Origin: Nostoc sp. PCC 7120 = FACHB-418
GTDB lineage: Bacteria > Cyanobacteriota > Cyanobacteriia > Cyanobacteriales > Nostocaceae
DNA: 32,000 bases
Direction: 5' to 3'
Assembly: GCF_000009705.1 (NCBI RefSeq)
Contig: NC_003272.1
Span: 4,380,001-4,412,000, forward strand
Below, one piece after another: positions 11,426-13,260 of the stretch (positions within the stretch are counted from its first letter, which is position 1; every line of letters begins with the position of its first letter). Below the pieces are notes generated by a model that ran no database searches, was not told the DNA's origin, and saw only the letters and a program-made list of their open reading frames with translations. Made by a program: the position numbers and the translations under genes.

Positions 11426-12199
11426 ATGAGATTTCCTAATCCACCTATAACCGAAGCCATTTTTGATATAACGGTAAATCTTCCTGACAATTTTCATCAG
11501 GAAGAACTTTTAAATTTTCAAGAAGATATCAAAGAATCTTTTCCCAATATTCAGAAAAGAATGGCACTTCAAGGAGGTTTTGAATTTAATTTAGAAAAGC
11601 CGGAAGAAGTAAATCCTCAGTTTTTTTCAATATCCAATCAGCCTGAAGGATATATTTTCGTTTCTAGTGACCAAGAAAGAATTATTCAAGCTAAGTTACA
11701 AGGCTTCACGTTTAGTAAATTGAAACCTTATCAAAGCTGGAAAGATTTTTATGGAGAAGCATACAAACTATGGCAAAAATATGTTGAAGTTACATCCCCT
11801 TTAAAAGTAGTTCGTCTTGCTTTACGTTATGTAAATCAAATAATTATACCCATACCAGAAGAAGGGGGAATAGAATTAAAACACTATATAAAAATATTAC
11901 CTGAAATACCCAGTGATTTATCGGTGGCGCTGGAAGGCTACTTTATGCAATTGGTTTTGAGTCATACAGAATATCAGCCATCAAGAGCAATCATTAATCA
12001 AACAATCGGTCAGATGGTTGAAAATGATGAAAGTAAAAAAGCGTATCCTTTAATATTGGATATTGATGTTTTTCAAGAAGTAAATCTATCTCCTGATGAT
12101 GAAGAAATAAAAAACATTTTTGAAGCGAATTTAAAATGTTTTAGAGAAGATATATTTTTCAAGAGTATCACAGAAAAAACGGAGGAGCTTTTTCGATGA
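11426..12199 (+). CDS. Uncharacterised protein resembling the TIGR04255 family (cassette gene A)
   Basis: The 257-aa product has an N-terminal FPNPPITEAIFDI motif, then RLALRYVNQI, LILDIDVF and a C-terminal FFKSITEKTEELF. These fit my memory of TIGR04255 family members. The gene is AT-rich. Confidence 0.6.
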   Translation: MRFPNPPITEAIFDITVNLPDNFHQEELLNFQEDIKESFPNIQKRMALQGGFEFNLEKPEEVNPQFFSISNQPEGYIFVSSDQERIIQAKLQGFTFSKLKPYQSWKDFYGEAYKLWQKYVEVTSPLKVVRLALRYVNQIIIPIPEEGGIELKHYIKILPEIPSDLSVALEGYFMQLVLSHTEYQPSRAIINQTIGQMVENDESKKAYPLILDIDVFQEVNLSPDDEEIKNIFEANLKCFREDIFFKSITEKTEELFR

Positions 12200-12735
12200 G
12201 TATATTATCTGCTCCCAAGAATGGTCATTCTTTAAATTCTATATCTAGTAGTGGTAACAGTGCTGAACACTATAAAATAGTAGAGACAGCAAAAACGGCT
12301 AGTCTACATAGACTAGAGTCAATCATATGGAAATACAGTATGTTTATCTATCTGTTTTCCAGTACAGATATTTCTGAATTTGAAGATAGAGTTGAAGAAA
12401 TTCGAGATGCAGTCATTAAAGGTCATGCAGCTTTATCAAAAGAAGACCTGAAAAATCTCAGTCAAGTCATAATAAAATTAGATTTGTTTCGTCTACAAGC
12501 CATCGTAAGACTTCTTGCTCCTCTTTTAGAAAGTAAGTTTTATTCACAAGATGCGGCTTTAATGATTAGAATTTTACTAAAACACGCAGAAGCAGAAGTA
12601 AGATATGCAGCATTAGAGTCCATAAGTTTTGCTTTGGGTGAAGTGCCAATAGCAGAAGAATTACTTGCAGAAGCCAAGAATTTACTTAAAAATGAAGAGA
12701 GTACATTTGTACGTGAATACCTGGAGTCATTATAA
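12196..12735 (+). CDS. Hypothetical all-helical protein with a HEAT/ARM-like C-terminal repeat (cassette gene B)
   Basis: Its ATG overlaps the gene A stop (ATGA at 12196-12199). The segments AEVRYAALESISFALGE and ESTFVREYLESL look HEAT-like. I recognise no family. Confidence 0.5.
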   Translation: MSILSAPKNGHSLNSISSSGNSAEHYKIVETAKTASLHRLESIIWKYSMFIYLFSSTDISEFEDRVEEIRDAVIKGHAALSKEDLKNLSQVIIKLDLFRLQAIVRLLAPLLESKFYSQDAALMIRILLKHAEAEVRYAALESISFALGEVPIAEELLAEAKNLLKNEESTFVREYLESL

Positions 12736-12738
12736 GGT

Positions 12739-13260
12739 GTGAGTGAAATATGCTATTACAGGAGTGTAAAAAGCCTTGCCATGTGGAAAGCGGGAACGCA
12801 ACAGCAGGCAATACCATCTCCAGACCATGCTAATAGATATTTAAGAGACATCAAAGAGGGAAAAGGATTTCCCTCCTTATGGCTAGCATCATGTTCTGAA
12901 GATTTAGAAAAAATTGCGTTGGGAATGCTACTACTCAAAGGTCATCTTGATACTGTAAACTTTATAGGATTTAAAGAATCTTGCTTTAGTAATGTAGGGT
13001 TAATAGTAAATCATGTCAAAGATACTAGTTTTCCTATCTCAGGAGTTGGTAATTTACACTATGAACTTTGTACATCAGATGATACTCAATTAATACCTGC
13101 AATCGAATTATTCTTAAAAGGGAATGGTTTTTTTGAAGAATTTGTGAAATCTCAACCCGATAAGAACAATATGCGAAAAATAGCAGCAAGATACATTAAT
13201 GAGGTAAATCAGCAGTATCAAGCAAAGGCTATAGAGTGGGGTAAACAATACTTGGAGTGA
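12739..13260 (+). CDS. Hypothetical protein (cassette gene C), no recognisable family
   Basis: A GTG start lies 3 nt after the gene B stop and is preceded by aagg. The gene has the same AT-rich composition as A and B. Confidence 0.45.
   Translation: MSEICYYRSVKSLAMWKAGTQQQAIPSPDHANRYLRDIKEGKGFPSLWLASCSEDLEKIALGMLLLKGHLDTVNFIGFKESCFSNVGLIVNHVKDTSFPISGVGNLHYELCTSDDTQLIPAIELFLKGNGFFEEFVKSQPDKNNMRKIAARYINEVNQQYQAKAIEWGKQYLE

Follow-up and report, generated by a model that had tools for sequence, protein, structure and literature searches.

A mobile three-gene cassette with a TIGR04255-family protein in Nostoc sp. PCC 7120 as a candidate defence or addiction module

Organization of the Locus

The 32,000-nucleotide stretch of Nostoc sp. 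PCC 7120 DNA analysed here (the window; positions 4,380,001 to 4,412,000 of contig NC_003272.1, forward strand) contains, between a mutS fragment and ftsH, three short genes on one strand that we refer to as A, B and C and, together, as the cassette or triad (Table 1). From the accession offset of BAB75338-BAB75340 their locus tags are most likely alr3639-alr3641; proteins named for Anabaena sp. FACHB-709 and for Nostoc sp. PCC 7120 match B and C at 100% identity. The initial annotation of this DNA, made from the letters without database searches, described three packed reading frames with a start/stop overlap and a short gap, and its coordinates proved exact: the ATGA at 12196-12199 is both the stop of A and the start of B (a 4-nt overlap), and the TAA stop of B (12733-12735) is followed by a 3-nt spacer and then the GTG of C. 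That annotation also placed the genes at a site damaged by an insertion sequence (IS), beside a broken mutS and the terminator of a convergent ftsH, all of which are present (Table 1).

Table 1. Features of the cassette and its immediate surroundings (positions in the window).
Feature	Position	Strand	Length	Description	Accession
IS110-family transposase	8850-9812			Upstream of the mutS fragment	
mutS fragment	10100-11305			5'-truncated; MutS residues 454-854 only	
Leader, putative promoter region	11335-11425	+		Travels with the cassette; inverted repeat CTCAG-AA-CTGAG (11385-11402), ~40-55 nt before the ATG	
Gene A	11426-12199	+	257 aa	TIGR04255-family protein, conserved anchor of the triad	BAB75338
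Gene B	12196-12735	+	179 aa	Ser-rich variable N-terminus; conserved C-terminal, possibly HEAT-like core, ~57-179	BAB75339
Gene C	12739-13260	+	173 aa	GTG start; alpha/beta protein by model	BAB75340
ftsH terminator hairpin	13415-13438	-		10-bp stem, then T run (terminator scan); outside the cassette; 3' limit of the intergenic space after C	
ftsH	13464-15374			Convergent with the cassette	

The three genes are, as had been observed, richer in AT than mutS and ftsH (32-36% versus 45-47% GC), with GC fractions of 0.317 (A), 0.337 (B) and 0.356 (C) against 0.454 for the mutS fragment, 0.468 for ftsH and 0.418 for the whole window. Ratios of nonsynonymous to synonymous substitution rates (dN/dS) were 0.16-0.33 for A, 0.21-0.35 for B and 0.08-0.17 for C, so all three are under purifying selection, with C the most constrained and B the fastest evolving. 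Because these ratios are low and homologues elsewhere keep the same order and spacing, we regard A, B and C as real genes rather than chance open reading frames. The N-terminus of C as read from the GTG (MSExxYYRSV, in the segment MSExxYYRSVKSL) is conserved in all homologues; the GTG at 12739 is therefore the true start, the 173-residue length and 3-nt gap are right, and the public records that give C as 159 residues (start at Met15, window position 12781) are too short.

The homology between cassettes extends beyond the coding regions. In an alignment of the 180 nt preceding A in 13 cyanobacterial loci of differing context, similarity starts ~90-110 nt before the ATG of A (TGATACGGAAAA...TTGTAGACTA...GGTTTCTAAATAAATGAAAAATG) and fades further upstream; at the other end, homology between genomes stops ~10-70 nt past the stop codon of C. 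Since the ~100 nt upstream of A are conserved across contexts, the cassette brings its own leader, which may act as its promoter. A consensus promoter scan returned no sites above shuffle expectation, an Rfam scan of positions 9000-16000 found no RNA family, and the only clear hairpin terminator in the region is that of ftsH. In related cassettes the inverted repeat of the leader is replaced by ACTAAA(A)TTTTAGT, with both arms altered together, and some cassettes have no such repeat; it could be an operator or a small hairpin.

The Three Proteins

Gene A had been likened to the uncharacterized TIGR04255 family, and the NCBIfam profile bears this out over its full length (E 1.9e-50, 172 bits against a cutoff of 30, residues 2-256 on profile positions 1-251 of 252). 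The Pfam, PADLOC and PHROGs libraries gave no match to A, and a profile search of PDB sequences gave nothing (best E 0.26). One A homologue (P0058) carries the precomputed Pfam accession PF27908.1, which is absent from the Pfam copy that we used; this very recent family, PF27908, may now cover TIGR04255-like proteins. The AlphaFold2 model of A, built from a 72-sequence alignment (predicted local distance difference test, pLDDT, 90.1; predicted template modelling score, pTM, 0.85), has two halves, each an antiparallel sheet against a long helix. An internal sequence duplication was rejected, being undetectable by hhalign (2%). Foldseek returned high probabilities and topological resemblance only, to AdoMetDC, to the McsB/arginine-kinase catalytic domain and to TBP (template modelling score, TM, 0.25-0.34; root-mean-square deviation 8-19 Å). 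We do not assign A to any of these folds (AdoMetDC-like, guanidino-kinase-like or TBP-like), since the TM values fall short of the ~0.5 criterion and no sequence relationship accompanies them.

Residues P7, E10, A11, Y102, W105, R130, R134, N137 and D212 are invariant in A and D214 is nearly so, and these positions are mostly charged and on strands (E10, R130, R134, N137, D212). A basic, TBP-like DNA-binding protein is unlikely given the isoelectric point (pI) of 4.7 (family median, 5.5), and we would expect the conserved surface to bind a ligand or partner rather than to form a DNA saddle.

Gene B was initially described as helical with HEAT-like repeats. Its conserved C-terminal two-thirds do look HEAT-repeat-like by sequence (segment EVRYAALEAISFALGEVPIAEE..LL), but the scores against Pfam HEAT (PF02985, 15.8 bits) and HEAT_2 (PF13646, 15.6 bits), both with E ~0.02, are below the respective cutoffs of 23.5 and 27.7. 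The homologue from Crinalium has similar scores, and two N-terminally deleted B homologues carry a precomputed PF13646 match marked 'weak'. A B profile retrieved just the PP2A A subunit from the PDB (E 0.57) and PADLOC yielded a TPR model only (E 0.011). A HEAT-like nature of B is, in our view, weakly supported. The B family comprises 39 clusters, which are cyanobacterial wherever a source is named.

For C, in which nothing had been recognized at the outset, our searches were likewise negative. Its family is tiny: 5.8e9 proteins contain 30 homologous clusters, and 1.84e9 contain no more than 21 representatives. C has no Pfam or PDB sequence match, profile search included, and neither C nor its 28 aligned homologues match Pfam at E up to 10; A and C have no match in PADLOC-DB v2.0.0 at E up to 1. 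The AlphaFold2 model of C, in which strands alternate with helices, is confident (pLDDT 94.6, pTM 0.89), and Foldseek found no significant match to it in the PDB (best E 0.11) or in the BFVD viral-structure library (best E 0.14). R8, W16, S46, W48, P99 and H107 are invariant even in distant members.

Two assignments of C were considered and rejected. The first, an ADP-ribosyltransferase, was raised by weak Foldseek matches to cholera toxin A1, Tpt1 and DarT (E 0.58-1.5, probability 0.08-0.23, TM 0.27-0.34); R8 and S46 of an R...S...H/E pattern are invariant, but E109 is lost in distant members, and by our own reading the alternating strand-helix order of the model appears unlike the core of these enzymes. 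The second, a diverged DUF7689 protein (PF24738), has no Pfam match behind it, and hhalign of C against a DUF7689 cluster gave 1.9%. By eye, the third genes of several non-cyanobacterial triads (L007, L008, L083, L095) have in common an N-terminal strand that carries R, G-x-S-[VT]-[FYW]-R and H-x-[ND]-[IV]; these motifs loosely recall R8, PS-x-W and LH-Y-E-L of C, with homology unsupported by hhalign (<1%).

Distribution and Mobility of the Triad

The co-occurrence of the three genes is not peculiar to PCC 7120. The B and C pair is present in 19 cyanobacterial loci, the window included, 15 of them with distinct A proteins, and the triad occurs at differing chromosomal sites in at least 14 other cyanobacterial species. 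The order A-B-C and the spacing are the same in Scytonema, Nostoc, Hassallia, Desmonostoc, Chlorogloeopsis, Anabaena/Dolichospermum, Calothrix, a Leptolyngbyaceae genome and 'Synechocystis' PCC 7509. Cyanobacterial cassettes occupy at least six distinct sites. Among these, the cassette is flanked by mutS and ftsH in the PCC 7120 lineage, by mutL and merR in Chlorogloeopsis (mutL also in Desmonostoc), by a MOSC gene and a metallophosphatase gene in PCC 7509, and by rpmF and cox genes in Anabaena UHCC 0451.

Two further copies are carried by mobile DNA. In Crinalium epipsammum the triad is on a MOBP mobilizable plasmid, pCRI9333.03, 3.4 kb from hsdM-hsdS. In a Nostoc locus (L096, 1943-16578) the end of an hsdM-vapBC-hsdS-hsdR-YgjP operon lies upstream and genes for TniQ, TniB and a TnsB-type transposase lie downstream; judged by gene content, this triad appears to be cargo of a Tn7-like element, together with the type I restriction-modification (R-M) operon, its embedded VapBC (PIN) pair and a truncated YgjP-like gene.

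The unusual base composition travels with the genes. Cyanobacterial cassettes have 31-34.5% GC and their flanks 37.5-45%, the cassette being the more AT-rich in all 19 loci, as it is in 52 of 59 others. The proposal that the three genes form a horizontally acquired accessory module is thereby upheld: the neighbours vary, the low GC is constant (19/19) and there are plasmid and transposon copies. This is no conserved core locus, as the nearest mutS relatives compared also lack the cassette downstream, and searches of NCBIfam, Pfam, PHROGs, PADLOC, PDB sequences and Foldseek yielded no housekeeping assignment for it.

In the Nostoc/Hassallia/Desmonostoc clade (L010, 9305-9459; L011-L015; L021) an element of 137-157 nt, MITE-like (resembling a miniature inverted-repeat transposable element) with terminal inverted repeats (TAGCAATCCTA...TAGGATTGCTA), is found at a TA exactly between the B stop and the C start. 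The element disrupts the 3-nt coupling of B and C and even provides the B stop codon; C is still intact in most such loci.

Genomic Surroundings in the PCC 7120 Lineage

The cassette had been noted to lie at an IS-damaged site, but a link between it and the damage to mutS was not supported. Strain L091, whose DNA is 100% identical to window positions 10099-22735, has an intact 854-residue mutS directly upstream of the same cassette, so an IS-mediated acquisition can be rejected; because mutS is intact in L091, the IS damage was a separate, later event, confined to the PCC 7120 lineage and with no bearing on the cassette. MutS residues 1-453 were removed in the IS110 event, and the N-terminal half of mutS lies outside the window. 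On a metagenome contig (L090) the same IS is flanked on its far side by clpX/clpP, where the window has an SLH-domain gene, which suggests that IS-mediated rearrangements differ between PCC 7120-like strains. The L091 sequence begins with the same 105 nt (100% identity) that precede the mutS breakpoint in the window (9996-10100); in L091 they sit at the contig end, ~1.3 kb upstream of the intact mutS start. We interpret this stretch as a repeat or an IS end that took part in the rearrangement.

Comparison of the mutS-ftsH interval with relatives, which had been suggested as a check on insertion, was informative in part. The cassette and ftsH are both missing downstream of mutS in the nearest mutS relatives compared (83%, 76% and 71% identity). 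The mutS-ftsH synteny is itself lost there, and a clean empty site is not available among them.

Elsewhere in the window, 7 kb upstream of the cassette, lies an AT-rich (33-38% GC) type II R-M pair, a BsoBI-family endonuclease and an N4/N6 methyltransferase (1849-4265), and 5 kb downstream lies a XisH/XisI gene pair of ~36-38% GC (18549-19087).

Association with Restriction-Modification and Mismatch Repair Genes

Type I hsd genes flank at least 13 of 82 distinct loci (few-seed search). In sampled non-cyanobacterial loci, type I R, S and M families were the commonest among the two nearest genes on each side (141 genes; Pfam, PADLOC), followed by other methyltransferases and restriction enzymes, Fic and ParE. 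The closest association is in Nitrospirota, where homologous triads lie inside the R-M operon in the single-strand order hsdR-A-B'-C'-hsdS-(Schlafen/AlbA_2 gene)-hsdM. In two distant lineages the triad is on the hsdR strand, 0.1-0.6 kb away. Other loci are near PIN/Phd, ParE and HigB toxin-antitoxin genes, transposases, Argonaute or cas6. Nesting between the genes of a type I R-M, BREX, DISARM or Hma system has been used to pick out defence candidates (bioRxiv 10.1101/2024.01.29.577857). Homologous triads of Nitrospirota are nested in a type I R-M operon, and there are cyanobacterial copies right after hsdR; the triad of the window, with mutS and ftsH as neighbours, is not nested in this way. 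Genes embedded in type I R-M operons have repeatedly turned out to be defence systems (PMC11411939; bioRxiv 10.1101/2024.01.29.577857).

Mismatch repair genes are a second recurrent neighbour. The triad is ~120 nt 3' of mutS in the PCC 7120 lineage (11305/11426), ~120 nt 3' of mutL in Chlorogloeopsis (L001, 6571/6694), 3' of mutL in Desmonostoc (L014) and, in a genome of Dadabacteria (L024, 10370-12955), two genes away from mutS, which is convergent. By our own rough estimate this mutS/mutL/mutS adjacency in three lineages exceeds chance, ~0.2 being expected among ~60 independent contexts. Either a hot spot for insertion or a functional connection with mismatch repair could lie behind it.

These neighbourhoods raise the possibility that the triad is an accessory of DNA-transaction machinery, modulating type I restriction (alleviation or assembly control) or acting with mismatch repair. 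The same-strand proximity to hsdR in two distant lineages and the above-chance mutS and mutL adjacency would fit such a role, as would the topology of A, which resembles TBP-like nucleic-acid-binding folds. However, that fold similarity is weak (TM 0.34 or less) and A is acidic; hsd, mutS and mutL genes are all missing from the vicinity of most copies, and the PCC 7120 copy is solitary. Moreover, A keeps its place while unrelated proteins take over from B and C (see below); a subunit dedicated to a conserved machine would not be expected to change partners in this way. We consider an accessory role improbable.

Exchange of the Partner Genes

Relatives of A were collected by a pattern scan, derived from a 16-sequence alignment, of one genome per species in 185,579 species. 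The scan found 358, in Nitrospirota, Planctomycetota, Desulfobacterota, Omnitrophota and others. The layout seen in PCC 7120 recurs widely: the next gene overlaps the A stop by 4 nt in 73 of 86 loci, and both junctions are tight in 68 of 88. The downstream pairs, or flavours, differ in identity. The commonest is cl0 + DUF7689 (48 loci), followed by the cyanobacterial B + C (19), cl4 + cl5 (4), cl7 + cl8 (2) and a few others. By hhalign the main pairs show no detectable relationship to each other, save for the second genes of cl4/cl7 (80%) and cl0/cl4 (32%); B or C against every other flavour gave less than 5%, and the idea that B is a diverged cl0 protein was rejected on this basis (4.6%). Flavours mostly track the A tree, with a few switches. 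As read from these gene orders and alignments, the general design is a conserved anchor A with an exchangeable two-gene module, at least four pairs having been found.

Some flavours have recognizable relatives. The second genes of cl7 and cl4 match PDC-M32A (E 8e-6 and 1.6e-3, respectively), and the third gene cl8 matches PDC-M32B weakly (E 0.02); PDC-M32 is a candidate put forward from its embedding in defence systems (bioRxiv 10.1101/2024.01.29.577857). On a Vibrio plasmid, a distant TIGR04255 gene precedes a 179-aa gene and a gene for a zeta-toxin kinase. Searches of PDB sequences with the third genes of other flavours gave nothing useful. A literature search on TIGR04255, DUF7689/PF24738/IPR026349/PF27908 and alr3639-41 found no paper, and TIGR04255 goes unmentioned in the portion consulted of one preprint's supplements (bioRxiv 10.1101/2024.01.29.577857).

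The exchange of partners also bears on another explanation of the triad, an ordinary but lineage-restricted cellular function (stress, metabolism or regulation) with a patchy distribution. Several cyanobacterial copies do sit among housekeeping genes, purifying selection acts on all three genes, and no toxin or nuclease motif was recognized in them, all of which speaks for such a function. Against it stand the variable sites, the foreign-looking composition, the plasmid and transposon copies, the R-M embedding and the modular partner swaps, as well as the rarity of the family by pattern scan (only 358 relatives). Taken together, these make an ordinary function highly improbable.

Natural Deletion Forms

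Several cyanobacteria carry decayed cassettes. In Calothrix sp. NIES-4071 an in-frame deletion fuses A(1-16) to B(57-179), followed by the 3-nt spacing and an intact C that is 83% identical to that of the window. Dulcicalothrix desertica PCC 7102, the other named strain of the Calothrix group, has the same A(1-16)::B(57-179) junction, as does a third sequence cluster, and the three diverge by ~10-15%; since the junction is common to three diverged clusters, this A-less form has persisted. In Tolypothrix sp. NIES-4075, C is gone and what is left is an A(1-82)::B(51-158) remnant. C is truncated in one Nostoc locus, and the remnants in which C is missing or truncated (L181, L021) retain A and B sequence. 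An intact C without the B core was not found among the loci examined. As far as gene content can tell, this pattern of decay fits toxin-antitoxin logic.

The deletion forms are also the natural place to consider a pure addiction module, that is, a tripartite toxin-antitoxin system that has no anti-phage role and stabilizes a plasmid, Tn7-like transposon or R-M island, with A as a third, regulatory or chaperone-like part, comparable to omega in omega-epsilon-zeta or to the SecB-like chaperone of TAC systems. Such a module could account for the persistence of the B-core and C pair without A, and it agrees with the carriage of the triad by a plasmid and a transposon, the zeta toxin in third position in one distant variant, the other toxin-antitoxin pairs that adjoin the triad or sit in the same R-M operons, and the rarity of relatives in phage genomes. 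It fits A less well, which is larger and more conserved than the accompanying pair, has no helix-turn-helix or ribbon-helix-helix fold and, with its acidic pI of 4.7, is unlike a repressor; in addition, the hsdR-hsdS embedding pattern has led to confirmed defence systems (PMC11411939; bioRxiv 10.1101/2024.01.29.577857). We think addiction on its own unlikely, and note that addiction and defence are compatible rather than exclusive.

A Candidate Defence or Addiction Module

We interpret the alr3639-alr3641 triad as a defence or addiction module in which C would be the effector, B its neutralizer and A a sensor or regulator, and we put the probability of this reading at roughly 0.55. It is favoured because the genes are tightly coupled, their foreign composition travels with them, they are carried by a plasmid and a transposon, they are recurrently embedded in R-M operons, the downstream pair is exchanged as a unit and an intact C was not seen without the B core. 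The analysis shows that the operon is conserved and under selection, that it has moved between sites, that its relatives are linked to R-M genes and that its B core and C persist without A; the identity of the toxic protein, its trigger and any activity against phages are inferred.

The mechanism that we envisage is as follows. C would be a toxin-like enzyme or a binding protein with the R-S-H signature. B, as a helical and possibly HEAT-like protein, would bind C and neutralize or position it, and A, the conserved member, would act as sensor or regulator and link the B-C pair to a trigger, either phage infection or failure of a neighbouring restriction system. Growth would then be arrested, or infection aborted. 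The scheme is weakest where A is concerned: B and C stay together in its absence, and yet no other component is as widely conserved.

Several observations weigh against a defence or addiction role. The PCC 7120 copy sits between housekeeping genes and outside any defence island, as do several other cyanobacterial copies. The enrichment of R-M genes near the triad was judged against our own expectation of ~0.1-0.3% per random gene rather than a computed control. Relatives in phages are nearly nil, with one in 50,697 phage records and one in 2.9 million IMG/VR contigs; the sole IMG/VR example is a cl4/cl5-type triad adjoining tail-fibre-like genes, and on these two records we also reject the cassette as phage-borne. 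The zeta-toxin arrangement of Vibrio is a single locus with a 108-nt gap and an A that is 22% identical. No toxin, nuclease, NTPase or DNA-binding domain was detected in A, B or C with NCBIfam, Pfam, PHROGs, PADLOC and PDB sequences, and neither A, B and C nor the flavour-1 proteins have a PADLOC v2 match. Lastly, the roles proposed for the three proteins were deduced from gene order, rates of evolution and a handful of decay forms. The defence or toxin-antitoxin-like character proposed in the initial annotation has therefore gained the linkage to type I R-M genes, the mobility and the exchange of pairs, while its mechanism is still a matter of inference.

A more ambitious formulation is that TIGR04255 triads are a new, widespread anti-phage family. 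Here A, with its undescribed two-lobed fold, would be a sensor that guards type I restriction or detects infection and frees interchangeable inhibitor-effector pairs, and C would be an enzyme whose fold has no solved or predicted viral relative; the PrrC-like logic of a second line behind restriction would then be built from entirely new parts. This we regard as doubtful. More generally, the triad is a plausible, undescribed candidate system, one among many such candidates.

If the defence or addiction interpretation is right, a three-gene system of uncharacterized families would be added to the defence and addiction modules associated with R-M, and TIGR04255, and possibly DUF7689, would acquire a function. 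Its host is the main genetic model among cyanobacteria, and tests of defence systems there have been few. C, with a confident predicted structure and no PDB or BFVD match, is a target for structural and enzymological work. If the interpretation is wrong, the triad is still a well-defined mobile operon.

Comparison with Known Systems

The cassette is tied to TIGR04255 ('sporadTIGR04255') through A, which is a full-length member and shares the sporadic spread of the family across phyla. The family entry gives neither function nor partners, and the triad architecture, pair exchange and R-M linkage are in no paper found by our literature search. The TIGR04255 + cl0 + DUF7689 triads of Nitrospirota, Planctomycetota, Desulfobacterota and others have the same order, sizes and 4-nt overlap and an A that is 36-45% identical. 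Between their two downstream proteins and B and C, however, no homology could be detected (hhalign 4.6% and 1.9%).

PrrC in the EcoprrI locus and RloC are genes embedded in type I R-M operons. So are TgvAB of Vibrio cholerae VPI-2 (PMC11411939) and the PADLOC 'PDC' candidates (bioRxiv 10.1101/2024.01.29.577857). Relatives of the cassette are found between hsdR and hsdS, or just behind hsdR, on the same strand, and it was this kind of context that led to the embedded systems. In contrast to these embedded systems, the triad has no ABC-ATPase/anticodon-nuclease, GmrSD or other known domain, and its PCC 7120 copy is in no R-M operon. The two-gene candidate PDC-M32 is matched by the second genes of cl7 and cl4 (over the C-terminal part of PDC-M32A) and not by the cyanobacterial flavour; PDC-M32A had no match among the TIGR04255 proteins tested.

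Toxin-antitoxin systems with three components include omega-epsilon-zeta and TAC, the latter a toxin-antitoxin pair with a SecB-like chaperone. The triad differs from both in that A is neither a ribbon-helix-helix repressor nor SecB-like, and B and C are in no known toxin or antitoxin family. It resembles them in having three small coupled genes, a conserved third component that accompanies differing pairs, a zeta toxin in one distant variant, and a pair that survives without the third component.

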